Shown here one piece after another: positions 1,351 to 20,406 of a stretch of DNA of 64,000 bases. A program made the translations under genes and the position numbers. Positions within the stretch are counted from its first letter, which is position 1; every line of letters begins with the position of its first letter. The notes below the pieces were generated by a model. The model made no database searches and was not told the DNA's origin. It was given only the letters and a program-made list of their open reading frames with translations. Origin of the DNA: a virus (lineage: Duplodnaviria > Caudoviricetes); IMG/VR virus record IMGVR_UViG_3300010356_002264; one strand, given 5' to 3'.

Positions 1351-1591
1351 CGGCGCGTAGCTCGTCGAGGCGAACCTTGAGCAAGGACGGAGTCTTGACC
1401 GAGGACGGGGTGCCCGCGAGGATCGCGTAGCGTGTCTCCGCGCGGAGTGCTCGCTCCTCGTTAATGAGCCCCTCCTGGGCCGCTACGCAGAGGTGGTCGA
1501 AGCACAGGGGGTAGGTGTCCTTCTTGTGTGTGAGGGTCGTGACGACCGGCTCCGAACAGGGGACGTACGCGCACCTGGGAGGATTGTCCAT
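1256..1591 (-). CDS. small Cys-containing hypothetical protein
   Basis: CxxxxC...CxxH; start at 1591 supported by the promoter motif; 3' end overlaps ppx. Confidence 0.55.
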   Translation of the reverse strand: MDNPPRCAYVPCSEPVVTTLTHKKDTYPLCFDHLCVAAQEGLINEERALRAETRYAILAGTPSSVKTPSLLKVRLDELRAVIRDPSQRPPGRTPCRGSTPSRARGVSPRPA

Positions 1592-1620
1592 GCGCCTTCC
1601 TGGGTTGTTCGTCACGGTCC

Positions 1621-1637
1621 GGAGCTGACTCAGCTCC
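1621..1637. promoter_or_regulatory. back-to-back TCAGCTCC motifs for ATG 1591(-) and 1667(+)
   Basis: GGAGCTGA-C-TCAGCTCC, both at 30-nt offset. Confidence 0.8.
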
Positions 1638-1666
1638 AAAGACCTTTTACTCATCGACTACAAGAC

Positions 1667-2587
1667 ATGTGCTTCCAGACCACGCCCTCCCTGGGCAGCT
1701 ACATCGAGCTGTACGACCCGCTGTACCACCCTGTCGATGGGCGACCTCCCTTGATCGTCGCGTACGGGATGGGGGTTGACTCGACCGCCATGCTCGTCGA
1801 GCTGGTGAACCTGTCGATCCGACCCGACCTGATACTCTTTGCAGATACCGGGGACGAGAAGCCGGAGACCTACGCCTACCTGGCGATCATCAACGCCTTC
1901 CTGCGCGCGAACGGCTACCCAGAGGTCATCGTGGTGCGTCGCTCTCCGACGACCTCTCGCAAGAGCGGGATGGTGTACAGGACACTCGGGGAGAACTGCG
2001 TGGCCAACGCGACGCTCCCCTCGCTGGCGTTCGGTCGCAAGGGGTGCTCGCAGAAGTGGAAGCGTGAGCCGCAGGATAAGCACGTCAACGGTTGGGCTCC
2101 GGCGCGCGCGGCCTGGAAGCGTGGGCAGAAGGTCGTCAAGCTCATCGGCTACGACGCCGGGCCCAAGGACGCGCGTCGCAGCAAGATCGCCGACGACGCC
2201 AAGTACACCTACCTCTATCCACTGCGCGAGTGGGGGTGGGACCGAGAGCGGTGCGAGCGAGAGATCGCGCGCGCCGGCCTGCCGGTGCCCCCGAAGTCGG
2301 CCTGCGTGTTCTGCCCGGCCACCAAGCCCGAGGAGCTAGAGGAGATGATCCGTCGAGACGTGCAGGTCGCCTACAAGATCATCCAGATGGAGGCGGTGGC
2401 GGCTCCGGGGCTAAAGAACATCGACGGCCTGTGGCGCAAGGCAACCAAGAAGCGGCCCGGCGCGATGACCCCCTACGTGCGAGAGGTACTCCAGCGGATC
2501 GCCGACGAGAAGGGGCGCGGCGTCGTGCGGTCCCCTGCGCTGCGGGTCCTGCGGGAGGACGACGCGAGCACAACCCCCTGCGGGTAG
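1667..2587 (+). CDS. PAPS reductase family (PP-loop, Fe-S) protein
   Basis: VAYGMGVDSTAML PP-loop, FADTGDE, KSACVFCP; start refined by the promoter motif. Confidence 0.8.
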   Translation: MCFQTTPSLGSYIELYDPLYHPVDGRPPLIVAYGMGVDSTAMLVELVNLSIRPDLILFADTGDEKPETYAYLAIINAFLRANGYPEVIVVRRSPTTSRKSGMVYRTLGENCVANATLPSLAFGRKGCSQKWKREPQDKHVNGWAPARAAWKRGQKVVKLIGYDAGPKDARRSKIADDAKYTYLYPLREWGWDRERCEREIARAGLPVPPKSACVFCPATKPEELEEMIRRDVQVAYKIIQMEAVAAPGLKNIDGLWRKATKKRPGAMTPYVREVLQRIADEKGRGVVRSPALRVLREDDASTTPCG

Positions 2588-6846: not shown

Positions 6847-6888
6847 GGGTCCTAGGACTCCGATGGAGAACGCAGAAGGACGGTGTAT

Positions 6889-6958
6889 ATGTCGCGATCA
6901 GGGATCAGGTTGGTCTCCAAAACCGACCAGCGGGGTTCAATTCCTCGGCGACATGCCA
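6889..6958 (+). tRNA. tRNA-Trp(CCA), D-arm reduced
   Basis: ATGTCGC/GCGACAT acceptor, loop CTCCAAA, T arm, encoded CCA. Confidence 0.8.
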
Positions 6959-6959
6959 A

Positions 6960-7032
6960 GCCCTCGTAGCACAACTGGCGGTGCGTCGGTTTCGTAAACC
7001 GAAGGTAGTCGGTTCGAGTCCGGCCGAGGGCA
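6960..7032 (+). tRNA. tRNA-Thr(CGT)
   Basis: Cloverleaf, loop TTCGTAA. Confidence 0.92.
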
Positions 7033-7074
7033 CAAGTATCGACATAGGTGCGTGCGTGAATCGCGCATAGCATT

Positions 7075-7147
7075 GCGGGACTAGCTCATCCGGTAGAGTG
7101 CCTGGTTGCCAATCAGGAGGTGGAGGGTTCAAGTCCCTCGTCCCGCA
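7075..7147 (+). tRNA. tRNA-Gly(GCC)
   Basis: Cloverleaf, loop TTGCCAA. Confidence 0.92.
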
Positions 7148-7161
7148 CTGTAGGAACATAT

Positions 7162-7247
7162 CCCGGCGTATACCGTTATGGACACGGGGCAGACTGTAAA
7201 TCTGTCGCCTTCGGGTAGGGGGGGTTCGATTCCCTCCGCCGGGACCA
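7162..7247 (+). tRNA. tRNA-Tyr(GTA), C1:G72
   Basis: Loop CTGTAAA, long variable arm, ACCA end. Confidence 0.9.
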
Positions 7248-7393
7248 TGCGAGCGACCATCTATACGGTGGGCTCGCCTCTCTCAGCCCCGCAAGAGCTG
7301 AGAGGCTGACAACTCAAGAGTGAGAGATGAAGAGCGCGGGGCTCGCGCCACTTCCCGGGGTGATGCTCGAAGGTGGTCAGTCCCGCGCAGTAT

Positions 7394-7465
7394 GCGCCCG
7401 AGGCCGACTGGTGAGGCAGCTGATTCTTAATCAGTTTGAGGTGGGTTCGATCCCCACTGGGCGCA
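7394..7465 (+). tRNA. tRNA-Lys(CTT)
   Basis: Loop TTCTTAA. Confidence 0.9.
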
Positions 7466-7527
7466 CTCAAGGAGCCACACATGCAGACCAAACGCGCGGC
7501 GAGGGGAGCTCGCAGTCAGGACCCCGC

Positions 7528-7600
7528 GCCGCTGTAGCTCAACTGGCTGAGCAGCGTCCTTTTAAGTCGTTGGATGAGGGTTCGAGTCCCTCCAGCGGCA
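7528..7600 (+). tRNA. tRNA-Lys(TTT)
   Basis: Loop CTTTTAA. Confidence 0.9.
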
Positions 7601-7619
7601 ACGATAAGGTAGAGTAGCT

Positions 7620-7721
7620 TTACCGACTCCCACGAACGGGCCCTACAAGCACAGGTTCGACTCCTGTACCCTCCACTCTTACGGGGGGCGCGGTTAATGG
7701 TCCGCTCACTCGAGTTGGTAA
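7620..7721 (+). ncRNA. permuted tRNA-like / Y-RNA-like RNA, copy A (no D or anticodon arm)
   Basis: 10-bp terminal stem, CCAC/ACTC internal loop, T arm followed by a closed acceptor-like hairpin. Confidence 0.7.
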
Positions 7722-7724
7722 CAT

Positions 7725-7799
7725 GCGGGTTTGGCCGAGCGGCCCAGGCACCAGCTTCCCAAGCTGGACACGAGGGTTCAACTCCCTCAACCCGTACCA
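7725..7799 (+). tRNA. tRNA-Gly(CCC)
   Basis: Loop TTCCCAA, CCA end. Confidence 0.92.
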
Positions 7800-7800
7800 T

Positions 7801-7873
7801 GCGAGCGTCGCCCGACCGGCCGGGCACCAGCCTTCCAAGCTGGACCAAGCGGGTTCGAGTCCCGTCGCTCGCT
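7801..7873 (+). tRNA. tRNA-Gly(TCC)
   Basis: Loop CTTCCAA. Confidence 0.9.
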
Positions 7874-7876
7874 CTG

Positions 7877-7884
7877 ACAGCTCG
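7877..7884 (+). promoter_or_regulatory. ACAGCTCG motif for ATG 7914
   Basis: 30-nt offset. Confidence 0.65.
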
Positions 7885-7913
7885 GCGGGTAGTTCCTTCC
7901 CAGAGGAACTCCC

Positions 7914-8585
7914 ATGAAGATCTGCAAGGATGGCAAGCGGGTCGTTGTTACGGACCACGCCGCAACACGGTACGCCGCTCGGTACGACCGCGGGCTTGGG
8001 GTCGAGGAGGCCCGCACGAAGCTGGGGGTCCACATCATGAAGTCGAGCGCCAAGCGGCTCGTGGACAAGTCTCCCGCGGGGGACCCCCTCATGCTGCTAC
8101 CGGAACTCGACTGCGTGGTGGTGATCAAGCCAGACAACCGAGAGGGGCACGAGGGGGACCTCGTGGTCCCCACGGTCCTCGACAACCCGGATCGAAAGGT
8201 GAACCGAGGGCCGATGTACGAGAAGCTCGCGGCGATGTCCAACCTGCGCGCGACCCTCCCCGCGCAGGTGCAGGATCCGCCGCCGCCTCAAGCCCCCGAG
8301 GAACCCGAGGAACCAGAGGAACCAGAGGAACCAGAGGAGCCGCCGAAGTCGACACCTAGCGTTGACTGGCTGGAGCTCCAGCAGCTTCGTCGAATGCGTG
8401 ACCAGCTAGATGTCCTGGTCGCCTCGTTGCGGAAGCGTGAGCAGCACATTCGGGTCTCGGTCGCGGGCATCCCGGAGAACCTGAACCTTCAGGGGTGGGC
8501 CGACCGCCACATGACGCTGGCCGTGGAGCTAGGGTCCATCGGGGACGAGGTCGAGCGCTTGCTAGCGCAGACTGCTCGGGCGTAG
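7914..8585 (+). CDS. hypothetical protein with a (PEE)5 linker
   Basis: Promoter motif 30 nt upstream; stop codon lies inside tRNA-Gln. Confidence 0.7.
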   Translation: MKICKDGKRVVVTDHAATRYAARYDRGLGVEEARTKLGVHIMKSSAKRLVDKSPAGDPLMLLPELDCVVVIKPDNREGHEGDLVVPTVLDNPDRKVNRGPMYEKLAAMSNLRATLPAQVQDPPPPQAPEEPEEPEEPEEPEEPPKSTPSVDWLELQQLRRMRDQLDVLVASLRKREQHIRVSVAGIPENLNLQGWADRHMTLAVELGSIGDEVERLLAQTARA

Positions 8586-8648
8586 CTCAACGGTAGCAGC
8601 GGCGGCCTTTGACACCGCAGGTTGGGGGTTCGAGTCCCTCCGCCCGAA
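8576..8648 (+). tRNA. tRNA-Gln(TTG)
   Basis: Loop CTTTGAC. Confidence 0.88.
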
Positions 8649-8687
8649 CTCACTGAACGTCGTATCACTCGCCACAGGGCGAGTCGC

Positions 8688-8760
8688 TGGGGTGTAGCTC
8701 AACTGGCAGAGCGCCGGTTTCTGAAACCGTCGGTTGAAGGTTCGACTCCTTCCACCCCAA
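8688..8760 (+). tRNA. tRNA-Gln(CTG)
   Basis: Loop TTCTGAA. Confidence 0.9.
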
Positions 8761-8779
8761 CTCAGCTTTGGATTCTTCT

Positions 8780-8863
8780 GGAGGGTGCTTCTGGGGTGGC
8801 CCGGAGCCTGTTTGCTAAACAGTGCGTGTGTAACAGCACAGGGTTCGACTCCCTCACCTTCCG
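8780..8863 (+). tRNA. tRNA-Ser(GCT), 8/4 type
   Basis: 8-bp acceptor, 4-bp T stem, 6-bp D stem, G73. Confidence 0.85.
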
Positions 8864-8881
8864 CTCAACTTGACCTGACAA

Positions 8882-8963
8882 GGGAAGCAAACGCGGTGTG
8901 GACCGCGACCCGTCTCGAAAACGGTGTGCTGCAAGGCATGGGGTTCGACTCCTCTGCTTCCCG
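8882..8963 (+). tRNA. tRNA-Ser(CGA), 8/4 type
   Basis: GGGAAGCA/TGCTTCCC acceptor, loop CTCGAAA. Confidence 0.85.
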
Positions 8964-8967
8964 CTCT

Positions 8968-9053
8968 GGAGGGTATCTGCGGTGTGGACCGCAGCCTGCT
9001 TGGAACGCAGTGCGCTCGGGCAACTGGGCGGGGTTCGACTCCTCTACCTTCCG
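8968..9053 (+). tRNA. tRNA-Ser(GGA), 8/4 type
   Basis: GGAGGGTA/TACCTTCC acceptor, loop TTGGAAC. Confidence 0.85.
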
Positions 9054-9056
9054 CTT

Positions 9057-9241
9057 TCCCGGTAGACCAAGAGAAGCGCTGTCCTGGCCCAAGTGCGCCG
9101 CAAGGCCCCAAGGTGTCCGGTCGTGCAGCGGGCGCGCATCTGGCGCGGTTGTAGAGGTCGCCACCCCGACGGGGGAAACCCCAGGAAGATGCCCTGGCAA
9201 AGGGATAGTGGTGGAGGTGCCGGTTGGATACCGGCCCGGGA
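9057..9241 (+). ncRNA. tRNA scaffold with very large D-loop and anticodon-loop insertions
   Basis: TCCCGG/CCGGGA, TA, GACC/GGTC, CCACC/GGTGG, AGGT, GCCGG-TTGGATA-CCGGC. Confidence 0.55.
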
Positions 9242-9259
9242 TTTCATGGTTGTGCAGAT

Positions 9260-9345
9260 GGAGGAACCACCCGACGTGGCGACGGGACCTGTCTTGAAAA
9301 CAGGCGAGGTGCAAGCCCTTGGGGGTTCGACTCCCTCTTCTTCCG
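9260..9345 (+). tRNA. tRNA-Ser(TGA)
   Basis: Loop CTTGAAA, long variable arm. Confidence 0.88.
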
Positions 9346-9362
9346 CAAGGTAGAGTATGCAC

Positions 9363-9824
9363 ATGTCCGAAGGAATGCAGAAGCTCCTAGACCTTCTCCT
9401 CACGCGTCCCCCCCTCTCTGAGGACCAAGTCAAGGCTCGCGGCCTCGCGTGGCGCGAGGCCGTCGTTGCGCTCATCGTGACCCTGGAGAACTGGCTACAA
9501 CCGCTAGTCGCCGCGAACGTGGTCACGGTGACCCGCACGGAGCACGACCTACAGGACATGTGGATGGGGTCTAACACCGTGCCGGGCCTCGTAATGCGGT
9601 ACGGGCTCGTCGAGGTCCGATTCGAGCCCTTGGGTGTACAGGCGGCACGCTGCGTAGCTCCTGACATCTTCATGGCAGAGGGTCGGGTCGACATCGTATG
9701 TGGGCCGCACAGCGTTCCCCTCATTCTCAAGGAAGAGAAGTGGTATGCCGTCAGTCTTCGAGGTCGCAGCTCCGAGCTCACGGAGGACATCCTCTCCTGC
9801 ATCCTCGCCGAGATGCTTTTGTAA
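9363..9824 (+). CDS. hypothetical protein
   Basis: Clean ORF between tRNAs. Confidence 0.65.
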   Translation: MSEGMQKLLDLLLTRPPLSEDQVKARGLAWREAVVALIVTLENWLQPLVAANVVTVTRTEHDLQDMWMGSNTVPGLVMRYGLVEVRFEPLGVQAARCVAPDIFMAEGRVDIVCGPHSVPLILKEEKWYAVSLRGRSSELTEDILSCILAEMLL

Positions 9825-9828
9825 CCTC

Positions 9829-9901
9829 GCTGGACGATGCTGTCGTGGGACGGCGCCGGCCTTGTAGCCCGGTCTTGGCGGTTCGACTCCGACGTCCAGC
9901 A
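9829..9901 (+). tRNA. tRNA-Thr(TGT), atypical 8-bp acceptor
   Basis: GCTGGACG/CGTCCAGC, 6-bp D stem with GTGG loop, loop CTTGTAG. Confidence 0.75.
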
Positions 9902-9916
9902 CTCACGATTCACCAG

Positions 9917-9992
9917 TTCGGCGCTCCGACGGAGGAGACCGGGGCGGGTCGCACCTGTCCTCGGCGGGGTGGTTAGAGCCCACCCGCTGAAG
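9917..9992 (+). ncRNA. degenerate tRNA-like RNA
   Basis: TTCGGCG/CGCTGAA acceptor, GGTGG-TTAGAGC-CCACC T-like arm, extended anticodon-like stem. Confidence 0.45.
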
Positions 9993-10025
9993 CCTTGATG
10001 GTTAGCCTCTGATGTTAACCGTTTC

Positions 10026-10352
10026 ATGCAGTGTCGATGGTGCAGGAAGAGTCTCCAGGGTCGGCAGCGGTCGTTCTGCTCTGTCTCGTGCAAGGTCACC
10101 TGGAACGTGACGGAGTGGAGACGCAGGACGAAGAAGAAGGCTGTCGAGTACCTCGGAGGACAGTGCGTCAGGTGCGGCTACAACAAGTGCCTCCGGTCCC
10201 TGGTCTTCCACCATCGAGATCCGGCCGAGAAAGAGTTTCAGATTGCTAGTAGCCACATACGAGGGTGGGAGAGGATTCGCAAAGAGTTAGATAAGTGCAT
10301 ACTGCTATGTGCGAACTGTCACGGAGAACAGCACGAGGACATTCCCAGGTAG
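10026..10352 (+). CDS. HNH endonuclease
   Basis: CVRCG...FHHRDP...LLCANCH. Confidence 0.85.
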   Translation: MQCRWCRKSLQGRQRSFCSVSCKVTWNVTEWRRRTKKKAVEYLGGQCVRCGYNKCLRSLVFHHRDPAEKEFQIASSHIRGWERIRKELDKCILLCANCHGEQHEDIPR

Positions 10353-10417
10353 CTCAATGGCAGAGCACGAAGCTGTTAACTTCGGTTATGGGGGTTCGAG
10401 TCCCTCCTTGGGAGCCA
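10343..10417 (+). tRNA. tRNA-Asn(GTT)
   Basis: Loop CTGTTAA, GCCA end. Confidence 0.92.
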
Positions 10418-10430
10418 GCGACGAAAACAT

Positions 10431-10503
10431 GCCCCTTGTAGCTCACCGGTCGAGCAGCAAGCCGTTAACTTGCCTGTAGTGGGTTCGACTCCCACCGGGG
10501 GCG
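10431..10503 (+). tRNA. tRNA-Asn(GTT), second divergent copy
   Basis: Loop CCGTTAA; one-nt bulge in the acceptor. Confidence 0.8.
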
Positions 10504-10539
10504 CTAAGTAACAAAGCTATGTAGGAACATAGTCACCAT

Positions 10540-10613
10540 GGTCCGGTAGCCAAGTGGTAAGGCACCTGCCTGCAAAGCAGACATCGCCGGTTCGATTCCG
10601 GCACGGACCTCCA
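10540..10613 (+). tRNA. tRNA-Cys(GCA)
   Basis: Loop CTGCAAA, U73-CCA. Confidence 0.92.
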
Positions 10614-10618
10614 AATAG

Positions 10619-10626
10619 TCAGCTCC
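10619..10626 (+). promoter_or_regulatory. TCAGCTCC motif for ATG 10656
   Basis: 30-nt offset. Confidence 0.75.
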
Positions 10627-10655
10627 AGTACGTCGGGTCGCATCAACGTAGGAGC

Positions 10656-10925
10656 ATGAGTCGACAGCTACTTCCGTTCGCGATGTTCCCTCCCGGAACC
10701 AAGGTCCGCTTCAAGGACGCGCTCGACCGCGCCCCGGACTTCACGGTACCGGCCGGGGCGCTCGGTGTGGTGATGGTGGTGGACGAGGAGTTCGAGCGGA
10801 TCGTCGTCAAGGTGACCTCCCCCGAGGTGCCCGGCCTCACGGACGACCCCGAGTGGAAGGGAGAGGTCATCTTCTGCCTCCCCGAGGGGGACGACCCGGT
10901 CGCGGACCTAGAGGTAGTGGCGTAG
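10656..10925 (+). CDS. small SH3-like hypothetical protein
   Basis: Promoter motif 30 nt upstream; FPPGTKVR pattern. Confidence 0.65.
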   Translation: MSRQLLPFAMFPPGTKVRFKDALDRAPDFTVPAGALGVVMVVDEEFERIVVKVTSPEVPGLTDDPEWKGEVIFCLPEGDDPVADLEVVA

Positions 10926-10952
10926 AGTTTAAGCAGCTAGCCCGAGGCATGA

Positions 10953-11059
10953 GCCCCCGCTGGGGCCACGTCGAGGAAAGGAGGACGTCCTGGAGGGCAC
11001 CAGGGCGGGATCGACCTACCTCGACGCCGGTGGGCCGGGTTGAAGTCCCGTAGGGGGCC
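10953..11059 (+). ncRNA. tRNA-like structured RNA with an internal insertion
   Basis: GCCCCC/GGGGGC closure, CGGG-TTGAAGT-CCCG arm, GTCGAGG/CCTCGAC stem. Confidence 0.4.
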
Positions 11060-11093
11060 TCTCTTTCCCAGTATAGAAGCGAGTTCGCAGTAT

Positions 11094-11168
11094 CAGCGTG
11101 TAGCTCAGCCTGGCCAGAGCACGTGCTTGGGGTGCACGGGGTCGGAGGTTCAAGTCCTCTCACGCTGA
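11094..11168 (+). tRNA. tRNA-Pro(GGG)
   Basis: Loop TTGGGGT. Confidence 0.92.
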
Positions 11169-11205
11169 CTCAGTTTTGAACGTCAAAATGTGATAGGTTC
11201 ACTTC

Positions 11206-11829
11206 ATGGCGAAACCTGAAGTGAAGACCGAGGCGATCCGGCTCCGTGTCGAGGAACGGAAGTCCCTCCGAGACATTAAGAAGCTTACGGGCGTGTCGCA
11301 GGGCATCTTGAGTTTGTGGCTGCGCCCCTACCCACTCTCATCTGAAGAGCGGAAAGCGATCGCCAAAGCGAAGCGTGCGCTGCAACCTGATCCAGCCCGC
11401 AGAGATCCAGGACTCGAAGCAAAGGCACGCACGAACCTATGCGGACAGATGACCGAGAGGGATCATAAGGGGCGCGTCGCCGAGATGATGGTTGCGCTTC
11501 GGCTCGCCGAGCAAGGGTTCCTCGTCTATAAACCCTTGTTTGACTGCACGCGCGTCGACTGGCTCGCCTACAACCCAAAGACTGGTACGTACAATCGAAT
11601 ACAAGTCAAATGGTGTAAGTCTCCAAAGACAGGAAGGGCTCAAGTAAGTCTACGATGTAGACACGGAAAATTAAGACGTACATATACAGAATCAGACGTA
11701 GACTACGTTATAGGTTATGATCAATGTACGGACACAACTTACGTATGGTCGATTAGTGAAGTATCTCACATTAAATCCGATATCACCGTCAATGAAAACG
11801 CACGTGAACGATGGGACAAACTGAGGTAA
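11206..11829 (+). CDS. HTH + PD-(D/E)XK homing-type endonuclease
   Basis: KGRVAE...VD...RIQVKW; lower GC than flanks. Confidence 0.8.
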   Translation: MAKPEVKTEAIRLRVEERKSLRDIKKLTGVSQGILSLWLRPYPLSSEERKAIAKAKRALQPDPARRDPGLEAKARTNLCGQMTERDHKGRVAEMMVALRLAEQGFLVYKPLFDCTRVDWLAYNPKTGTYNRIQVKWCKSPKTGRAQVSLRCRHGKLRRTYTESDVDYVIGYDQCTDTTYVWSISEVSHIKSDITVNENARERWDKLR

Positions 11830-11830
11830 T

Positions 11831-11904
11831 CGGGGTGTAGCGAAGCTTGGTATCGCGCCTGATTCGGATTCAGGAGATCGTGGGTTCAAATCCCGCCACC
11901 CCGA
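11831..11904 (+). tRNA. tRNA-Pro(CGG)
   Basis: Loop TTCGGAT. Confidence 0.92.
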
Positions 11905-11906
11905 CA

Positions 11907-12071
11907 ATGGAACACCAAGTAAGTAAGAATCCATCGAGATGGGTTCTCCCCGTCCTGATAGGACTTATTACAGCTCATCTTTGGCACGCATGGGTGTTGG
12001 ATCGGCACGTCGAAGCAATCAACAAGATCCGTATCGAACTGCATAAAGTGCAACAAAACTTGAAAAAGTAG
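11907..12071 (+). CDS. small membrane protein
   Basis: 54 aa; hydrophobic helix plus coiled coil. Confidence 0.45.
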   Translation: MEHQVSKNPSRWVLPVLIGLITAHLWHAWVLDRHVEAINKIRIELHKVQQNLKK

Positions 12072-12075
12072 GTTC

Positions 12076-12149
12076 CCGCACGTAGCACGGTCTGGTAGTG
12101 CATCCGGCTGATATCCGGGAGGTCGAAGGTTCAAATCCTTCCGTGCGGA
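12076..12149 (+). tRNA. tRNA-Ile(GAT)
   Basis: Loop CTGATAT. Confidence 0.9.
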
Positions 12150-12151
12150 CT

Positions 12152-12228
12152 GTGAACGAAGGCGAAGTGGTCGAGCCCCCTGGCTGTGAACCAGGGCTAA
12201 GCGGGTTCAAGTCCCGTCGTTCACCCCA
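12152..12228 (+). tRNA. tRNA-His(GTG), no encoded G-1
   Basis: Loop CTGTGAA, C73-CCA. Confidence 0.9.
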
Positions 12229-12233
12229 CTCAT

Positions 12234-12311
12234 GGTGGTCGTAGCTCAACTGGCTAGAGCGTCGGGCTGTGAACCCGAAGACGAGGAGTTCGACTCTCCC
12301 CGATCACCCCA
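12234..12311 (+). tRNA. tRNA-His(GTG), with G-1
   Basis: Loop CTGTGAA, C73-CCA. Confidence 0.9.
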
Positions 12312-12312
12312 C

Positions 12313-12390
12313 GTCCCGGTAGCTCAGTCTCAGGTAGAGCATCCGGCTGAAACCCGGAGGTCGGCGGTTCGATTCCGCCTCGGGACACCA
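12313..12390 (+). tRNA. tRNA-Phe(GAA)
   Basis: Loop CTGAAAC, ACCA end. Confidence 0.92.
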
Positions 12391-12391
12391 T

Positions 12392-12464
12392 CCCCTGGTA
12401 GCTCATGTGGTACGAGCGTCGGACTGAAAATCCGAAGATCGTGGTTCGACTCCACGCCGGGGGA
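12392..12464 (+). tRNA. tRNA-Phe(GAA), second copy
   Basis: Loop CTGAAAA. Confidence 0.9.
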
Positions 12465-12590
12465 CTAGCGGGCAGGGCGGGACGCGCCGCCTCGCGGTGG
12501 CGTTGGGCTTCGGCCCACCCCTGCCTGCTCCGGGCCGCTGACGGGCCCGTCCGATGACGGCGGAGAAGCGGGATGCCGCGCGCAGCACCT

Positions 12591-12662
12591 GGGGTCGTAG
12601 TGATAGCGGTAGCACGCCTGCATGGCATGCAGGTAGCAGGGGTTCGACTCCCCTCGGCTCCA
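12591..12662 (+). tRNA. tRNA-Ala(GGC)
   Basis: G3.U70, loop ATGGCAT. Confidence 0.9.
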
Positions 12663-12677
12663 CTCAGGTAGACGGTC

Positions 12678-12821
12678 GGAACGTGGGGGCGGTACCTCAC
12701 GCGGGGCGGCTGTAGCCGGCTGGACGAGCATCGCTCGCGTCCCGGGAGGGCTCCTGCGGCGCGGTGGGAGACCACCTGCGGGCGAGCGCGATAGCGCCGA
12801 GCGCTCGGTCCCTCACGTTCC
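12678..12821 (+). ncRNA. putative structured ncRNA
   Basis: 12-bp terminal stem GGAACGTGGGGG/CCCTCACGTTCC enclosing GC-rich hairpins; no credible ORF. Confidence 0.4.
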
Positions 12822-12825
12822 TTTC

Positions 12826-12833
12826 TCAGCTCC
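12826..12833 (+). promoter_or_regulatory. TCAGCTCC motif for ATG 12863
   Basis: 30-nt offset; CGACT at -12. Confidence 0.78.
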
Positions 12834-12862
12834 GGTTCTCGTGAAATTTTCGACTGTCCGTC

Positions 12863-13165
12863 ATGGACGCCAACGAACTCAAGAACCTCGCCGACGGTGT
12901 TAACGAGAGCAAGCGTGCTGAGACGGAGCGCGCGAACCTAGAGAAGGTAAACCAGGTGCTCAGGCGCTGCGAGGATGTGGCCCGCCAGGGAGGCTACAAG
13001 CTAACCTACATGGACTCCTGCCTCAACCCGCAGGTCCTTGGGAAGCTGACGGCCTCGAAGGCGAACAACGGGTTGGGGCTCGTCGTAGTGGACAAGTCGG
13101 ACCGCTCGCGATCGCGCCCCCACTTCAGCTACGAGATCTCCTGGGAGGGGGCTGAGGGTAAATGA
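12863..13165 (+). CDS. hypothetical protein
   Basis: Promoter motif 30 nt upstream. Confidence 0.7.
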   Translation: MDANELKNLADGVNESKRAETERANLEKVNQVLRRCEDVARQGGYKLTYMDSCLNPQVLGKLTASKANNGLGLVVVDKSDRSRSRPHFSYEISWEGAEGK

Positions 13166-13200
13166 AGGTAGTACGTGGCGGCTTGACGCCACCTGACATC

Positions 13201-13276
13201 GCGGGGTTAGCTCATGTGGTAGAGCGCTGGTGTGACACGCCAGAGGTGGGAGGTTCAAGTCCTCCACTCCGCACCA
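13201..13276 (+). tRNA. tRNA-Val(GAC)
   Basis: Loop GTGACAC, ACCA end. Confidence 0.92.
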
Positions 13277-13277
13277 T

Positions 13278-13352
13278 GGGGTCGTAGTGATAGCGGTAGC
13301 ACGCCTGCCTCGCACGCAGGTAGCAGGGGTTCAATTCCCCTCGACTCCACCA
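13278..13352 (+). tRNA. tRNA-Ala(CGC)
   Basis: G3.U70, loop CTCGCAC; body nearly identical to Ala(GGC). Confidence 0.92.
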
Positions 13353-13386
13353 GACAAGTCGCCCACGAGGGCAGAAGGGAGAGACC

Positions 13387-13695
13387 ATGCGCCACAGCAT
13401 CGACAAGTTTCCCGCCTGGAAGAACGCCTCACGGCGGGAGGTCTCGACCCTGTTCGCGCCCTTCAGCCCCTACTGCCTGATGAGCCTGGCGAAGCTCTTC
13501 CGCGGTGAGGACGTGGTGGTGGGCAACTCTGCCCCCGTGCTGGCCCGACGCGACCGGCCCGGCCTGGCCCCCAAGAAGCGGGGCGGCCTGAATGAGCACG
13601 GCCGGTCCTGCTCCTGCTGCAACCCTCGCCAGGGGCGGCCCCGCAAGCCCTACGACCGGGCGCGGACCCCCAGGATCAGCGCGGACCTGGACTAG
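13387..13695 (+). CDS. basic hypothetical protein with CSCCNPR motif
   Basis: SD-like GGAG upstream. Confidence 0.55.
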   Translation: MRHSIDKFPAWKNASRREVSTLFAPFSPYCLMSLAKLFRGEDVVVGNSAPVLARRDRPGLAPKKRGGLNEHGRSCSCCNPRQGRPRKPYDRARTPRISADLD

Positions 13696-13848
13696 CTCAG
13701 CTCCGGCCGTGTGCGGCCTTGACACGACCCTCTGGTCCGAGGGTCTCTGTCATAGGGTGGTTGGCCCCCGCTCGGGATTCTCTGTGGCGGGAAGTTCAGA
13801 GAACCTCGGGCCGCTTCCCTTCAACCTCATGATGCCGCATCATGAGGT

Positions 13849-14265
13849 ATGTACGAGAATACGAAGGTTAAGGGTGAGGCTGCCGAGGTCGAAGTCCTGG
13901 TAAACCTTAAACGTCGGGGTTATCGAGTTTCGGTTCCGTTTGGAGAGAACTCACCTTATGATCTTATCGTCGAGTCTCCATCTGGCATGCTGTACCGGAT
14001 ACAGGTACGTGCTGCGTCGTGGAAGCTGGGACACCTCGTACTATCGCTTAGGTGCGTCAGCAAGAACTACAGTCGCACCCTCGACAGGTCACGAATCGAA
14101 GCTTTCATAGTTTGGGATGGAACGACCTGCTATGTCGTACCTTGTGTTGACACACAAGGATGCGAAACGACATTCTCTCTCCGACGAGACGCAGCGAAAA
14201 ACGGGCAGAAGAAAAAGACGCGGGATGCGGACACCTATGCGAATGCGTTTCACTTGATTCCATAA
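13849..14265 (+). CDS. PD-(D/E)XK homing-type endonuclease
   Basis: TKVKGEAAE...PFGENSPYDLIV...RIQVR. Confidence 0.85.
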   Translation: MYENTKVKGEAAEVEVLVNLKRRGYRVSVPFGENSPYDLIVESPSGMLYRIQVRAASWKLGHLVLSLRCVSKNYSRTLDRSRIEAFIVWDGTTCYVVPCVDTQGCETTFSLRRDAAKNGQKKKTRDADTYANAFHLIP

Positions 14266-14337
14266 GGGCGTTTAGCTCAATCGGTAGAGTGATGGCCTTG
14301 CAAGCCGTCGACGGGGGTTCGATTCCCCCAACGTCCA
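14266..14337 (+). tRNA. tRNA-Ala(TGC)
   Basis: G3.U70, loop CTTGCAA. Confidence 0.92.
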
Positions 14338-14460
14338 CAGGGTTTGCCGGCGACCGCGACGTCGCGACAGAGCGGTTGGGGCGTCCCGCCTAATCGTTGG
14401 GCTACAAGGCTCCTCGCCTATCGCCCCCAGGTACAGTCAGAGGTGCCCTCCCTCACCGTG

Positions 14461-15282
14461 ATGACTGGAGACAACTTCATCCAGGTTCCCACGCTAGCCG
14501 ATGCGTCAGTCGACGTAGTGGTGACGAGCCCGCCATACTGGGGACAGCGCGAGGGCCCAGGGATTGGTCAAGAGCCAGATCCCCGTGAGTACCTACGGTC
14601 GGTCGCGAGGGTCTTCGAGGTCCTGCGACCCAAGATGAAGCATCGGGGCATCCTGTGGGTGAACCTTGGGGACGCCTACAACACCCCGGTGAACTGGAGC
14701 CCTCAGAGCGCGCACAAGTACAGCACGCTTGGCCCACAGCGGGCCGGACTCCCTGCGGGGAATGCGGCCTACGTCAAGCCGCGGGGGACGCGCAGGGCCT
14801 TCGTGAAGCCCGAGGTGCCATGGCTCCGGTATGGGAGCCTCCTGGCGCTACCACATCGGCTCGTCGCCGCCCTGTGCGACTTGGGCTACCTCCTGCGAGG
14901 GGAGGTCATCTGGCGGAAGCGCAACCCACTGCCGGAGGGACGATGCCGCCGGCCGCACCGCCAGCACGAGGTGATCCTCCTACTCGCGCTCCGAGAGGAC
15001 CACGAGTTCCGGGTGAGCCCTCCGGTGGGGAGCGTCTGGGAGGTGGCGAACGAACTTCCCAGAGGGGAGCGACACTACTCGCGCTTCCCCGTCGAGATCC
15101 CGCGACGGTGTATAGAGGCGTACGGGCTCGTGGGAGGTGAGGTACTGGTGCTCGACCCCTTCTCCGGGTCGGGAACGACCGGGATCGCCGCCCGGTCGCT
15201 GGGATGCTCGTTCGTAGGCGTTGAGATCGATCCTCTTCGCGCCGAAGAATCACGTAGGACACTAGGGATTACAGGCGTGTAG
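14461..15282 (+). CDS. N4-C/N6-A DNA methyltransferase (beta class)
   Basis: VTSPPYW precedes LDPFSGSGTT; start uncertain. Confidence 0.9.
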   Translation: MTGDNFIQVPTLADASVDVVVTSPPYWGQREGPGIGQEPDPREYLRSVARVFEVLRPKMKHRGILWVNLGDAYNTPVNWSPQSAHKYSTLGPQRAGLPAGNAAYVKPRGTRRAFVKPEVPWLRYGSLLALPHRLVAALCDLGYLLRGEVIWRKRNPLPEGRCRRPHRQHEVILLLALREDHEFRVSPPVGSVWEVANELPRGERHYSRFPVEIPRRCIEAYGLVGGEVLVLDPFSGSGTTGIAARSLGCSFVGVEIDPLRAEESRRTLGITGV

Positions 15283-15348
15283 CTCAGCGGCAGCAGCATC
15301 GGCCTTACAAGCCGAGGGTCGAGGGTTCAACTCCCTCCGCGCCTACCA
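15273..15348 (+). tRNA. tRNA-Val(TAC)
   Basis: Loop CTTACAA, ACCA end. Confidence 0.92.
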
Positions 15349-15349
15349 C

Positions 15350-15425
15350 GGCCGCGTAGCTCATCTGGCAGAGCGCCTGGGTCACATCCAGGAGGTAGAG
15401 GGTTCAACTCCCTCCGTGGCTACCA
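15350..15425 (+). tRNA. tRNA-Val(CAC)
   Basis: Loop GTCACAT, ACCA end. Confidence 0.92.
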
Positions 15426-15432
15426 AGTTCTC

Positions 15433-15505
15433 GGGTGTGCAGCTCGACTGGTCGAGCGGCGGCTTCATACGCCGATGGTTGAGGGTTCGAGTCCCTCCGC
15501 ACCCA
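15433..15505 (+). tRNA. tRNA with CAT anticodon (Ile2 or Met)
   Basis: Loop TTCATAC. Confidence 0.85.
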
Positions 15506-15555
15506 CTCCATTCTGATGGATAGTTTCAGCGTCCGAGCCGAAAGAACTACCCCTC

Positions 15556-15978
15556 CTAATGGATAGTTCGACGCAGCGCGCTCAGGACGAGGCGGCGCGC
15601 GACGCGTGCGTCGGACGCTGTCGGCTTGGACCGAGAGTTCCGGCCCGGAGCGTCGAGCCACATGTCGGCCGCGCAGTGCAGGGCATCAGGCCCGTAGGTG
15701 TAGGTCGGGGTCCAGTGGGAGACCCGGAGCTTGTCGGGGTCGCCGCCCCAGGCGATGACGTCGTGCCGCAACTTCGGGTCCTGACTGGCCGCCAGAGTGA
15801 TCTTGGCCCCGTGGTCCTTGGGTAGGAGGGACAGCGGCTTGTCCAGCACGATGCGCATCGCTCGACTGAACAGTTCCCGGTGTTTGTCGCTCAGGGGATT
15901 CTCAGGTGGGGGGCCACTCGATCCACCGTCCGAGTAAGGTAGGGTTCGACCGGGACGTCCGCGACGATCATGTGACAC
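15556..15978 (-). CDS. hypothetical protein
   Basis: Antisense ORF inside the array; start uncertain. Confidence 0.45.
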   Translation of the reverse strand: MSHDRRGRPGRTLPYSDGGSSGPPPENPLSDKHRELFSRAMRIVLDKPLSLLPKDHGAKITLAASQDPKLRHDVIAWGGDPDKLRVSHWTPTYTYGPDALHCAADMWLDAPGRNSRSKPTASDARVARRLVLSALRRTIH

Positions 15979-16190
15979 GCGCTGGTCGACATGGACCGCG
16001 GCGTTCGCCTTCTGGGGTCGTGAGTACGATGGTAGGTGACCTGGTGAGGCTTCACGTAGTCCCCGACGTCGATCTTCTGGATGACGTCGAGCGCCTGGTT
16101 CACGAAGCGGAACATCGCCGCCTCGTCTCCAAGCGCCCTGGAGACTTCAGTACCGATGCCAAGAAGGTAGCCGTCGAGAGCGTGGTTCAT
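15891..16190 (-). CDS. hypothetical protein
   Basis: ORF with AGGT SD-like sequence upstream. Confidence 0.5.
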   Translation of the reverse strand: MNHALDGYLLGIGTEVSRALGDEAAMFRFVNQALDVIQKIDVGDYVKPHQVTYHRTHDPRRRTPRSMSTSACHMIVADVPVEPYLTRTVDRVAPHLRIP

Positions 16191-16200
16191 GACACACCTG

Positions 16201-16274
16201 GGAGGTGTAGCTTAGCTGGTCAAAGCAGTGGGCTCATAACCCGAAGATCGAGGGTTCAAGTCCCTCCACCTCCA
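16201..16274 (+). tRNA. tRNA with CAT anticodon (Met or Ile2)
   Basis: Loop CTCATAA. Confidence 0.9.
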
Positions 16275-16286
16275 CCTGACGAAACC

Positions 16287-16490
16287 ATGGCACAGCAAAA
16301 CATCATATACGAGGATCAACTTCCCTGTGTGGGCTGCGGAAGTTCCGTTCCGGTCAGCCTGACGGTCGAGCTTCTTCACGGGGAGAAGAAGGACGTGGCC
16401 GCCAGGATGGGTCGCGAGTGGGAGTTGACGCTAGCTAAGCTAAGCGAGACGGGCGTACGTTGTGACGACTGCCACTCGCAGGAAGTTTGA
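16287..16490 (+). CDS. small Zn-ribbon protein
   Basis: CVGC...CDDC. Confidence 0.55.
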   Translation: MAQQNIIYEDQLPCVGCGSSVPVSLTVELLHGEKKDVAARMGREWELTLAKLSETGVRCDDCHSQEV

Positions 16491-16508
16491 CTGAAGGTAA
16501 CTGATCCT

Positions 16509-16581
16509 GCCGTCGAGGCTCATACGGATGGGCGCCTGCTTGGTAAGCAGGAGGCAGCGAGTTCGAGTCTCGCCGACGGCA
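16509..16581 (+). tRNA. tRNA-Thr(GGT)
   Basis: Loop TTGGTAA. Confidence 0.9.
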
Positions 16582-16584
16582 CTG

Positions 16585-16716
16585 ACTTCGTCCCTCGAGA
16601 AGGCCCTACAAGCCGGTTGGTTCAACTCCAACCTCCCCCACTCTACGGGGGAGACGCCTCGCGGAGAGGCAGCAGACCGTAAATCTGTCACCAATGGTCT
16701 TCCCACTCGACGAAGT
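16585..16716 (+). ncRNA. circularly permuted tRNA-Tyr(GTA)-like RNA, copy B
   Basis: Terminal stem, CCTC/ACTC loop, T arm, closed 7-bp acceptor, D arm, GCAGA-CCGTAAA-TCTGT. Confidence 0.8.
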
Positions 16717-16721
16717 TTCCC

Positions 16722-16796
16722 GCTCCCGTAGCACAACTGGATAGTGCACAGGTCTACGAAACCTGGTTCATGGGGGTTCGAGTCCCTCCGGGAGCA
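16722..16796 (+). tRNA. tRNA-Arg(ACG)
   Basis: Loop CTACGAA. Confidence 0.92.
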
Positions 16797-16798
16797 CT

Positions 16799-16946
16799 AG
16801 CTTCACCCCTCGTGTGGGCCACACACGCGACGCTATCCGGGTTCGACTCCCGGTCCCTCCTCACTGTGGGGGGATTGCCTAACGGTAAGGCAGCAGATCA
16901 ACCATCTGTCGAAAGACGCAACACGGCCCACCCACTCGGTGAAGCT
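16799..16946 (+). ncRNA. permuted tRNA-like RNA, copy C
   Basis: AGCTTCACC/GGTGAAGCT stem, CCTC/ACTC loop, arms in T-acceptor-D-anticodon order. Confidence 0.8.
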
Positions 16947-16982
16947 CACCTTCTACGAAGTGACTATGAAGTCACATCTGGT

Positions 16983-17399
16983 ATGAAGCGCTGCGCGACA
17001 TGCCAGACCCACAAACCGCTCGACGAGTTCACTCGGAACAAGACGAAGAAGGACGGCCGCAACGCCTCCTGTAAGGTCTGCCATCGAGCCTATGTGCGAC
17101 GGCACTACCAGAAGAACAAGGCTTACTACGTCAGCAAGGCGCGAAAGTACCAGGCTGGCATCAAACAGATCATCCGAGAGCTAAAGACGGTCCCCTGCGC
17201 CGACTGCAAGAGGACATACGACTGGTGGGTGATGGACTTCGACCATGCACGCGGCACCAAGAAGTTCACCATATCTCGTATGCAAGGACGTGTCGGTTTA
17301 CAGAACGCACTCTTCGAGATCGCGAAGTGCGACATCGTCTGCTCCAACTGCCACAGGGATCGCACGTACAAGCGGAGGATCGCCTCCAGCACCCCGTAG
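16983..17399 (+). CDS. HNH endonuclease
   Basis: CATC, CKVC, CADC...DFDH...VCSNCH. Confidence 0.85.
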   Translation: MKRCATCQTHKPLDEFTRNKTKKDGRNASCKVCHRAYVRRHYQKNKAYYVSKARKYQAGIKQIIRELKTVPCADCKRTYDWWVMDFDHARGTKKFTISRMQGRVGLQNALFEIAKCDIVCSNCHRDRTYKRRIASSTP

Positions 17400-17412
17400 C
17401 TCTCGTCAAGTT

Positions 17413-17554
17413 CGTTCCGCCCCTCGAGCAGGTCACACAAGCGATTGCAGGTTCGACTCCTGCCTCCCCGACTTCACCGGGGAGTAGCCAAACGGTAAAG
17501 GCACTGGAACAAGGATCCATCAAAAAGCACACGGCCTACCCACTCGGCGGAACG
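17413..17554 (+). ncRNA. permuted tRNA-like RNA, copy D
   Basis: CGTTCCGCC/GGCGGAACG stem, CCTC/ACTC loop, arms in T-acceptor-D-anticodon order. Confidence 0.8.
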
Positions 17555-17560
17555 ACCCTC

Positions 17561-17568
17561 TCAGCTCC
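17561..17568 (+). promoter_or_regulatory. TCAGCTCC motif for ATG 17598
   Basis: 30-nt offset. Confidence 0.75.
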
Positions 17569-17597
17569 AGGTGCTCACGGAAACAGGAGCGCCTCCC

Positions 17598-18023
17598 ATG
17601 CCCCCCCGACCCCCTCAGACCCTCAGCCCATCGCAGGTCACCATGCTGCGCGCGGCGAGCGCCGGCCGGGGACCGACCGACCACCTGGTGGGTCGAGGGC
17701 GCAGCTTCCATGGTGGGGCCGTGGGGACGCGGTTCTCGCTGACGCGCCGGGGCCTGCTTGACCGGCAGGGGAACATCACCGCGGCCGGCGTGGACCGGCT
17801 CAGGGAGCTCGACCTCTGGGCGCTGCGGGCGCGGGTAGCCGGCCTTGGAGCCGACGACCTCCGCGCGCTGCGCGAGTGCGTCGAGTACGCGCTCCCCCGC
17901 TTCCGTGACGCCTACACCGACCACATCCTGGAGGAAGGCGAGGAGGCCAGGCTGCGTGCCCGTCACGGGCGAGCGGAGCGTCTCCAGGCCATCCTCTTCC
18001 CCCCGAACGCTCCCGTAACCTAG
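17598..18023 (+). CDS. hypothetical protein (winged-helix-like N-terminus)
   Basis: Promoter motif 30 nt upstream; stop codon inside tRNA-Arg. Confidence 0.6.
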   Translation: MPPRPPQTLSPSQVTMLRAASAGRGPTDHLVGRGRSFHGGAVGTRFSLTRRGLLDRQGNITAAGVDRLRELDLWALRARVAGLGADDLRALRECVEYALPRFRDAYTDHILEEGEEARLRARHGRAERLQAILFPPNAPVT

Positions 18024-18081
18024 CTGGACAGGGTGCTGGCCTCCGAAGCCAGATGTGGGGGTTCGAGTCCCTCCGGGAGCA
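18009..18081 (+). tRNA. tRNA-Arg(CCG)
   Basis: Loop CTCCGAA. Confidence 0.92.
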
Positions 18082-18120
18082 CAGCTTGACAAGCCATCAC
18101 CTGCTTAGATACAAGACGAC

Positions 18121-18576: not shown

Positions 18577-18627
18577 GGCACGAGTCTTCTAAACTCGCAT
18601 CTGTGGGTTCGATCCCCACCGGGTGCA
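18553..18627 (+). tRNA. tRNA-Arg(TCT)
   Basis: Loop CTTCTAA. Confidence 0.92.
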
Positions 18628-18650
18628 CAACCAGCGGGTAGATCGGCCCC

Positions 18651-18854: not shown

Positions 18855-18881
18855 AGAAAATCGACCAGGACGTGCGGATTC

Positions 18882-18889
18882 TCAGCTCG
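18882..18889 (+). promoter_or_regulatory. TCAGCTCG motif upstream of the tmRNA-like RNA
   Basis: CGAC at the expected -12 position; no ATG. Confidence 0.6.
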
Positions 18890-18918
18890 GGTCGTGCGGG
18901 TGGTTCCGACCTTCCTGT

Positions 18919-19440: not shown

Positions 19441-19447
19441 CCGTTCC

Positions 19448-20391: not shown

Positions 20392-20406
20392 CTCACAGTC
20401 CTTCCT

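Follow-up and report, generated by a model that had tools for sequence, protein, structure and literature searches.

The stretch of DNA analysed here (the window, 64,000 nt) is the minus strand of positions 132,317–196,316 of a 202,778-bp IMG/VR record. The same phage is also represented by a 331,503-bp ENA contig, and the public runs containing its sequence come from activated sludge and wastewater, with no RNA run listed among them. Its TerL belongs to the huge-phage type and has hundreds of relatives that are about 50% identical. The plus strand of the window carries, at positions 6,880–20,985, a tRNA array in which 42 genes were called by ARAGORN. At least two further tRNA-Ser genes (GCU, 8780–8866, and GGA, 8968–9054) lie in this array, detected with the tRNA-Sec model only or at a lowered ARAGORN threshold, and the array holds at least 43 tRNAs in total. 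Neither tRNA-Asp nor tRNA-Glu was found in the array of the 203-kb record. The array is mosaic and rich in homing-endonuclease-type ORFs (LAGLIDADG, PD-(D/E)XK and HNH).

The element studied here, X (9057–9241, 185 nt), lies on the same strand between two tRNA-Ser genes. The upstream one, tRNA-Ser(GGA) (8968–9054, plus strand), was matched by the Rfam tRNA-Sec model at 32 bits and called by ARAGORN at a lowered threshold, having been missed at default; the downstream one is tRNA-Ser(UGA) (9260–9346, plus strand). X starts 3 nt past the discriminator of tRNA-Ser(GGA), which is the spacing seen at the tight tRNA–tRNA junctions of the array. A scan for promoters and terminators found none within X.

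X has the layout of a complete tRNA-shaped RNA gene. Its acceptor stem pairs TCCCGG (9057–9062) with CCGGGA (9236–9241), and positions 9056 and 9242, which would form a seventh acceptor pair, are U-U. A TA connector leads to the D stem, GACC (9065–9068) with GGTC (9156–9159), and a single G (9160) separates the latter from the anticodon-type stem, CCACC (9161–9165) with GGTGG (9210–9214). A variable region, AGGT (9215–9218), precedes the T arm, whose stem, GCCGG (9219–9223) with CCGGC (9231–9235), closes the loop TTGGATA (9224–9230). All 20 stem pairs are Watson-Crick. Two loops are replaced by inserts, of 87 nt in the D loop (9069–9155) and of 44 nt in the anticodon loop (9166–9209), and all of these features lie on the plus strand. 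Direct reading of the letters thus bore out the description given by the sequence-only reading, which had placed all four stems, their connectors and both inserts at these positions.

The D-loop insert begins with a single-stranded motif, AAGAGAAGCGC (9069–9079), and ends with a second such motif, CGCGGTTGTAGA (9144–9155); both are conserved in the homologs described below, and a variable hairpin domain sits between them. In the anticodon-loop insert a constrained fold predicts two hairpins, GGGG-GAAA-CCCC (9171–9182), with a GNRA tetraloop, and CCCU-GGCAA-AGGG (9192–9204). The latter resembles the anticodon-type arm of the homolog X''. The anticodon-type arm of X does not contain a 7-nt loop with U33. 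In the T loop U54 and A58 are retained, and position 56 is G rather than C.

The pattern was searched for with a descriptor (acceptor stem of 6 bp, 2 nt, D stem of 4 bp, D loop of 7–120 nt, 1 nt, anticodon stem of 5 bp with a loop of 7–80 nt, variable region of 4–5 nt, and T stem of 5 bp with a 7-nt loop). When only Watson-Crick pairs were accepted, X was the single match, both strands being scanned, in the window as well as in the full 202,778-bp record, and 60 dinucleotide-preserving shuffles gave a chance expectation of 0.017 matches per 64-kb window. When G-U pairs were allowed, about 11 chance matches were obtained per shuffled window. Because the G-U-tolerant pattern is common by chance, the significance of X rests on its perfect pairing and on its location.

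Folding of X alone, a check that the sequence-only reading had proposed, did not set it apart. The minimum free energy (MFE) of X is -79.5 kcal/mol, which is not unusual (z = -0.04), and the cloverleaf-constrained fold, at -78.2 kcal/mol, is 1.3 kcal/mol worse. Pair probabilities are about 1.0 over the acceptor and T arm (0.66–1.0 for individual acceptor pairs, 0.99–1.0 in the T stem) and fall to 0.11 for the D stem and 0.03 for the anticodon-type stem. These low values arise because a competing long-range helix, of about 9077–9085 with 9201–9210, is preferred in the MFE structure. The putative D and anticodon-type stems of X are supported by its homologs and not by its own thermodynamics.

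The homologs were reached through a 223-aa ORF at 7914–8585, whose 66–83%-identical homologs gave access to contigs from related phages sharing the gene order. Two covariance models were used, R1, built from X alone, and R2, built from X and X' and restricted to the cloverleaf pairs. X' (119 nt, contig L114, 9788–9906) was found by R1 with 23.8 bits and an E-value of 7e-5. It occupies the same slot as X, between tRNA-Ser(GGA) and tRNA-Ser(UGA), and was independently recovered by the descriptor, its D loop having 59 nt, its anticodon-type loop 6 nt and its T loop the sequence TTTGAGT. X'' (181 nt, contig L118, 3636–3816) lies at a different position of the array from that of X. It aligned end to end with R1, with 16.5 bits on a 251-nt stretch, and scored 38 bits with R2. 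The copies of X'' in contigs L119 and L120 are identical to that of L118, and a 90% identical variant was found in L115 (8937–9117; 35 bits with R2). The contig that carries X' also holds a 5'-truncated X'' (8938–9015), and at the edge of L123 lies the 3' part of an X'', the X slot of this contig being empty. Real tRNAs also match R2 end to end, with up to 35–38 bits, and the core of the family is therefore tRNA-like. In the cloverleaf-constrained fold X' has the same energy as its unconstrained MFE structure, from which only a few pairs differ, and the cloverleaf of X'' lies within 0.8 kcal/mol of its MFE.

Parsed by hand, the acceptor stems read UCCCGG/CCGGGA in X, CUCUCG/CGAGGG in X' and (A)CACCG/CGGUG(A) in X''. 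The D stems are GACC/GGUC, GCAC/GUGC and GCUC/GAGC, the anticodon-type stems CCACC/GGUGG, GCCCU/GGGGC and CCCCG/CGGGG, and the T stems GCCGG/CCGGC, GCGGG/CCCGC and ACGGG/CCCGU, in the same order. This independent parse gave the same stems as the alignment made with the covariance model; MAFFT alignments of the family were structurally wrong and were set aside in favour of these two. In the model-made alignment, which is fitted to the model's own structure and covers six rows (four of them distinct) from one narrow lineage, standard pairs occupy 97.5% of the 80 stem cells and double-sided changes occur in 11 of the 20 pairs: four of six in the acceptor stem, two of four in the D stem, three of five in the anticodon-type stem (where every cell pairs) and two of five in the T stem. 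The observed values were reached in none of 500 shuffles. In slid controls, in which partners were shifted by 1–3 columns, 34–57% of the cells paired and at most two pairs showed double changes. The search for covarying homologs that the sequence-only reading had called for therefore came out in favour of conserved stems. Its proposal that X is a tRNA scaffold carrying structured inserts held in part: compensatory changes keep all four stems, and of the two inserts only that of the D loop is found family-wide, the anticodon-loop insert being private to X. Excision by tRNA-processing enzymes and an aptamer-like, ligand-binding role of the inserts, further parts of that proposal, are conjectural.

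Constraint was also compared with that of neighbouring genes. The two X'' variants differ by 17 substituted positions and 2 indels, and their 90% identity compares with 89–100% in three tRNA-type genes nearby and with 86% in the DNA of the adjacent ORF; a fourth pair compared, tRNA-Gln(CUG), is only 57% identical. Among the predicted pairs that changed between the variants, six of nine still pair, through G-U intermediates. X and X' are 49–56% identical, whereas the tRNA-Ser genes that flank them are 91–92% identical. X and X' are therefore not simple orthologs, and either the slot was refilled by another member of the family or X is fast-evolving. The acceptor sequence and the discriminator vary across the members.

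All members retain the class-I cloverleaf, with an acceptor stem of 5–7 bp, a D stem of 4 bp, an anticodon-type stem of 5 bp and a T stem of 5 bp, a variable region of 4–5 nt and a T loop of 7 nt. Positions that shape the L are kept family-wide, namely U8/A14 (G8/G14 in X'), A15/U48, 26/44 and U54/A58, and A21 is present in X and X''. With its four stems, its 2-nt and 1-nt connectors and its short variable region, this body is that of a decoding tRNA. The D loop is not: those of X', X and X'' measure 59, 87 and 120 nt, respectively, against the 7–11 nt of decoding tRNAs, in which G18G19 pairs with a T loop carrying C56. Across the family the T loop carries U or G in place of C at position 56, and the T loops of the relatives read UUUGAGU or UCUGAGU. 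At its 5' end the D-loop insert is single-stranded and rich in purines, with AAGCGC closing the stretch (the forms are AAGAGAAGCGC, GACGAAAGCGC and AACGAAAAGCGC), and at its 3' end it carries a motif such as CGGGUUUGAACA, which in X reads CGCGGUUGUAGA; a variable hairpin domain lies between the two in all members. Each member's 3' motif repeats a piece of its T-loop sequence; the shared piece is GGUUG in X, and X' and X'' have GUUUGA. The anticodon-type loop of X' and X'' has 6 nt and no U33 (CAGACG and GUCAAA). Since the anticodon-type loops contain no anticodon, the family is unable to decode. The large structured D-loop insert is the defining conserved trait of the family, and the 44-nt anticodon-loop insert is unique to X, which is the most derived member known.

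Standard annotation did not report these elements. The Rfam tRNA models RF00005 and RF01852 were silent on X at E-values up to 10 and on X' and X'' at E-values up to 1, and no Rfam model matched any of the three. ARAGORN made no call on X, either at default settings or with introns allowed.

Presence of X at its slot is variable. Contigs from two independent studies join position 9055 directly to 9259 with only CC in between, and the same junction was read in L123 (811–821). From these junctions it follows that a 203-nt unit (9056–9258, plus strand), made up of X and the 17-nt leader of the next tRNA, comes and goes as a block. X is dispensable at its slot, as the two tRNA-Ser genes are directly joined in L123 and in the contigs of both studies. 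X is the sole member of the family in its 203-kb record; X' is accompanied by the truncated X'' in L114, and X'' was found in L115, L118, L119 and L120. At least one member is present in each relative with readable sequence, L123 being counted by the 3' part of X''. This pattern, in a small sample, fits a function that is needed and redundantly supplied. X is present with 0 differences in three further assemblies of this phage, which therefore add no variation.

Beyond these contigs the family was sought widely. R2 found no member in 42 IMG/VR relatives with about 50% identical TerL, its single match being an ordinary 69-nt tRNA, and blastn in the 42–43 TerL-linked IMG/VR relatives returned tRNA-Ser genes only. 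Weak R1 matches in IMG/VR relatives (L107–L109) were attributed to chance, as they are not close to any tRNA gene and the top one (L107) falls inside an ORF. A family-motif scan of all IMG/VR gave two matches in A+T-rich coding sequence, and the exact 17-mer of the T arm gave six matches there, all without acceptor pairing; both sets were likewise judged to be chance. An IMG/VR search with three neighbouring ORFs found no relatives. When X and the sequence around it were compared with 50,697 phage records by megablast and blastn, only chance matches came up, and a T-arm 21-mer scan gave 0 hits in 185,579 prokaryote genomes. A 26-mer of tRNA-Ser(UGA) had 0 matches in IMG/VR and, in JGI metagenomes, matched only an unrelated low-G+C phage. 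In its own genome X has, by blastn, neither a paralog nor a repeated piece. A tRNA-like element at 18997–19069 that shares CCACC/GGTGG and a CGACG loop piece with X was considered as the source of a copy and rejected, its score of 31 being within the shuffle range. Within the searches made, the family looks confined to one narrow lineage, that of phages of roughly 330 kb from activated sludge and wastewater.

Taken together, these observations make it probable that X is a conserved, non-decoding tRNA-shaped RNA gene belonging to a family with X' and X'', and they support the view that it is neither a chance pattern nor a decayed spacer. Decay is the alternative with the most to be said for it. 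X could be a meaningless spacer or a decaying tRNA pseudogene derived, for example, from a duplicate of tRNA-Phe(GAA): among the tRNAs of the array it aligns best with tRNA-Phe (12313–12390), with a score of 56 against 38 for the next and a median of 25, and both begin with TCCCGGTAG and finish with CCGGGA. The empty slot in L123 and in the contigs of two studies, together with the ordinary MFE of X, would also suit a dying gene. Neutral decay, however, should leave mismatches, and every stem pair of X is Watson-Crick; the stems moreover differ from those of the homologs by compensatory double changes, and the D-insert motifs are conserved in members that are otherwise only 56–69% identical. 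X'' is as conserved as the tRNAs next to it, and each readable relative keeps at least one copy. We therefore consider decay improbable. A chance pairing in G+C-rich DNA has still less in its favour. The sequence-only reading had scanned very many windows, and G-U-tolerant cloverleaves are plentiful in shuffled DNA, but the all-Watson-Crick form is expected at 0.017 per window, X sits where a tRNA would sit, and independent homologs have the same architecture with different stem sequences, so that chance is an explanation we find hardly credible.

Two further alternatives would give X a recognised tRNA-type function. According to one of them, X is a true tRNA gene with two introns, spliced into a decoding tRNA; its scaffold is indeed complete, and an unrecognised tRNA would be welcome in a 203-kb record that lacks tRNA-Asp and tRNA-Glu. 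Yet none of the three members is hit by a model of a group I or II intron or of a ribozyme, and the inserts (87 and 44 nt) are too short, the catalytic core of a group I intron in an anticodon loop taking at least 200 nt; the sequence-only reading had already set aside such introns, and rightly so. X' and X'', which carry no anticodon-loop insert, still do not have a 7-nt loop with U33, removal of the D insert between its conserved flanks would leave a D loop of about 19 nt without G18G19, and ARAGORN in intron mode is silent at X. Splicing into a decoding tRNA is thus very unlikely. The other alternative takes X as a miniature or permuted tmRNA-like RNA with its tag frame in the D-loop insert. 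It comes from ARAGORN: with the threshold set to 80%, the program suggests a permuted tmRNA whose 19-codon tag frame ends in TAG at about 9152–9154. This call appears only at the lowered threshold, and the proposed spans far exceed X and take in neighbouring tRNA genes. The acceptor stem (UCCCGG/CCGGGA) has no G3-U70, no Rfam tmRNA model matches, and the homologs do not keep the frame: in X' and X'' the D insert differs in sequence and by lengths that are not multiples of three. X accordingly does not show the combination of G3-U70 pair, conserved tag frame and pseudoknots by which a tmRNA would be recognised, and there is next to no likelihood of its being one.

The nearest known kind, by analogy, would be small stable RNAs of the T4 RNAC/RNAD type, followed by tRNA mimics such as YrlA. 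The T4 RNAs (species 1 and 2) have tRNA-like termini and are matured by the tRNA-processing machinery. Like the X family they are non-tRNA RNA genes within a phage tRNA cluster and are co-transcribed with it, as X presumably is. Compared by description only, the X family differs in keeping four cloverleaf stems together with a large D-loop domain, and it is confined to a different, G+C-rich lineage of huge phages. The YrlA-type Y RNAs, partners of Ro60/Rsr, are likewise non-decoding tRNA mimics found in phage tRNA arrays. Their tRNA-like module is closed by a long Ro-binding stem and has its arms in permuted order, whereas in X the order of the arms is normal, the ends form the acceptor stem and there is no long terminal stem. 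Y-RNA models gave no match to X, and the Deinococcus Y RNA model touched only the neighbouring tRNA, at an E-value of 4.7. The functions of T4 RNAC and RNAD have been described as yet unknown (PMC9697503).

The tRNA-like domain of tmRNA is comparable in that it consists of an acceptor and a T arm with the remainder emerging on the D-loop side and without anticodon decoding; X, in contrast, has separate D and anticodon-type stems and neither G3-U70, a conserved tag frame nor a model match. Engineered tRNA scaffolds and aptamer-tagged tRNAs offer another parallel, since there too a structured RNA is inserted into a tRNA body that shields and displays it. Classical scaffolds carry the insert in the anticodon arm. 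In engineered aptamer–tRNA fusions it has been placed in the variable arm (PMC5397188, PMC7590224), and the Spinach aptamer in the D loop of E. coli tRNA-Tyr gave no stable expression (PMC5397188). The conserved domain of the X family lies in the D loop, precisely where that insertion failed. Finally, irregular or allo-tRNA-like sequences of the 8/4 and 9/3 types have been described from bacterial and phage polycistrons and from those of soil metatranscriptomes (PMC5389517, PMC7609411). They resemble X as non-canonical tRNA-shaped genes in clusters, and the tRNA-Sec model matches the tRNA-Ser neighbours of X. They have altered acceptor and T-stem lengths but normal anticodon loops (PMC5389517, PMC7609411), and no D-loop insert of tens of bases is among the matches listed from the review of natural non-canonical tRNAs (PMC7609411).

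A path to a functional RNA can be proposed. X would be transcribed together with the tRNA array and released by RNase P and 3'-end enzymes as a discrete RNA of about 185–190 nt; release by tRNA-processing enzymes is suggested by the acceptor/T-arm minihelix and the tRNA-like spacing of the junction. Because decoding is impossible, X would then act as a structured RNA. The tRNA elbow is read by the ribosome, by RNase P and by T-box leaders, and double T-loop modules occur in RNase P and T-box RNAs (PMC4810234). Given that the elbow is rebuilt in X while the acceptor/T-arm half is kept, a tRNA mimic would be the most likely role, one that we put forward tentatively: the acceptor/T-arm portion would engage tRNA-binding factors, the D-loop domain at the elbow would add specificity, and the RNA would bind or titrate a phage or host protein. 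Other roles, such as that of a non-ribosomal aminoacyl carrier or of a processing element, are conceivable.

It is also possible, though in our judgement rather unlikely, that X is a natural scaffold with a rebuilt elbow, in which position 56 has lost its canonical pairing; it would keep its acceptor/T-arm face, and the readers of the elbow would be blind to it. Such an RNA would still be seen by processing enzymes, the CCA-adding enzyme, synthetases and acceptor-directed toxins, and would be invisible to the ribosome and to the double T-loop modules of RNase P and the T-box. It might serve as a decoy for a host defence enzyme that targets tRNAs, as a non-ribosomal aminoacyl carrier, or as a tether bringing a protein bound to the D-loop domain to the tRNA-handling machinery. 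Were this so, the presence of at least one member in every readable relative would reflect a needed function.

Since T4, it has been known that phages keep extra small RNAs of unknown role in their tRNA clusters, and YrlA-like mimics illustrate that the tRNA shape can be reused for other jobs. With the X family a new design would join them: a full cloverleaf in which a folded D-loop domain of 59–120 nt is tolerated and conserved. For structural biology it would be a natural case of elbow remodelling in which the acceptor/T-arm half is kept, and for RNA engineering a natural template for display from the D loop. For phage biology X is a candidate tRNA-directed counter-defence or regulatory RNA, and its family would mean that the spacers of huge-phage tRNA arrays hold structured RNA genes missed by annotation with ARAGORN and Rfam.

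X, the 185-nt non-decoding tRNA-shaped RNA gene of the array (window 9057-9241), resembles tRNA-Phe(GAA) (window 12313-12390) in its acceptor stem and T arm. The alignment score of this pair is 56, compared with 38 for X and the next tRNA, and the Phe anticodon arm (CGG..GAAACCC) aligns with the GGGG-GAAA-CCCC hairpin of X. The tRNA-Phe-like acceptor is shared neither by X' nor by X'', the 119-nt and 181-nt homologs of X in related phages. The resemblance may reflect shared descent, gene conversion or coincidence.

In each member of the family, the D-loop insert has a 3' motif that echoes the T-stem/T-loop sequence of the same molecule (9144-9155 and 9219-9230 in X). The common element is GGUUG in X and GUUUGA in X' and X''; the family shows just two independent states of this likeness. 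The likeness could come from a duplication, or it could serve as a second T-loop-like motif or in alternative pairing.

Other unusual tRNA-shaped elements were observed. A 73-nt element at window 18997-19069, not called by ARAGORN, scores 23.9 bits with R2, the covariance model built from X and X' using cloverleaf pairs only. Its CCACC/GGTGG anticodon-type stem is identical to that of X, and its loop reads CGCGACG as compared to CCGACGG at the opening of the X insert. Another odd tRNA, whose D loop measures 21 nt, occurs in related phages (L115:8733-8815, L118:3494-3576, L119:927-1009 and L114:8738-8823; RF00005, 38-46 bits). ARAGORN calls this gene tRNA-Ala(CGC) and places its anticodon at position 26; it has no counterpart in the window phage. 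tRNA-Ser(GCU) (window 8780-8866) and tRNA-Ser(GGA) (window 8968-9054) were not called by ARAGORN at default settings, and the Rfam tRNA-Sec model outscores the general tRNA model on all four tRNA-Ser genes (32-41.5 bits).

ARAGORN detected 44 tRNAs across the 202,778-bp record but no tRNA-Asp, tRNA-Glu or tRNA-Pro(UGG). Because the full phage genome is 331,503 bp long (ENA contig), these three may be encoded in the part outside the 202,778 bp scanned; they may also exist as unrecognisable variants within array spacers.

A 155-aa ORF without Pfam or PHROG family lies directly downstream of tRNA-Ser(UGA) in the window (9357-9824). Its position in the array differs among relatives (L115:7218-7685; L123:916-1383) and on these placements it acts as a mobile ORF would. 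LAGLIDADG, PD-(D/E)XK and HNH ORFs are also found within these arrays (L114, about 9170-9590; L123:191-556; window 11206-11829).

Near the array are encoded a 364-aa protein with a weak match to PAPS-reductase/PP-loop proteins (window 1493-2587), a fold found in tRNA-modifying enzymes, and a protein of 826 aa that has a VWA domain at its C terminus (window 53309-55789), adjoined by a MoxR-like AAA protein. All three are possible candidates for RNA-handling partners.
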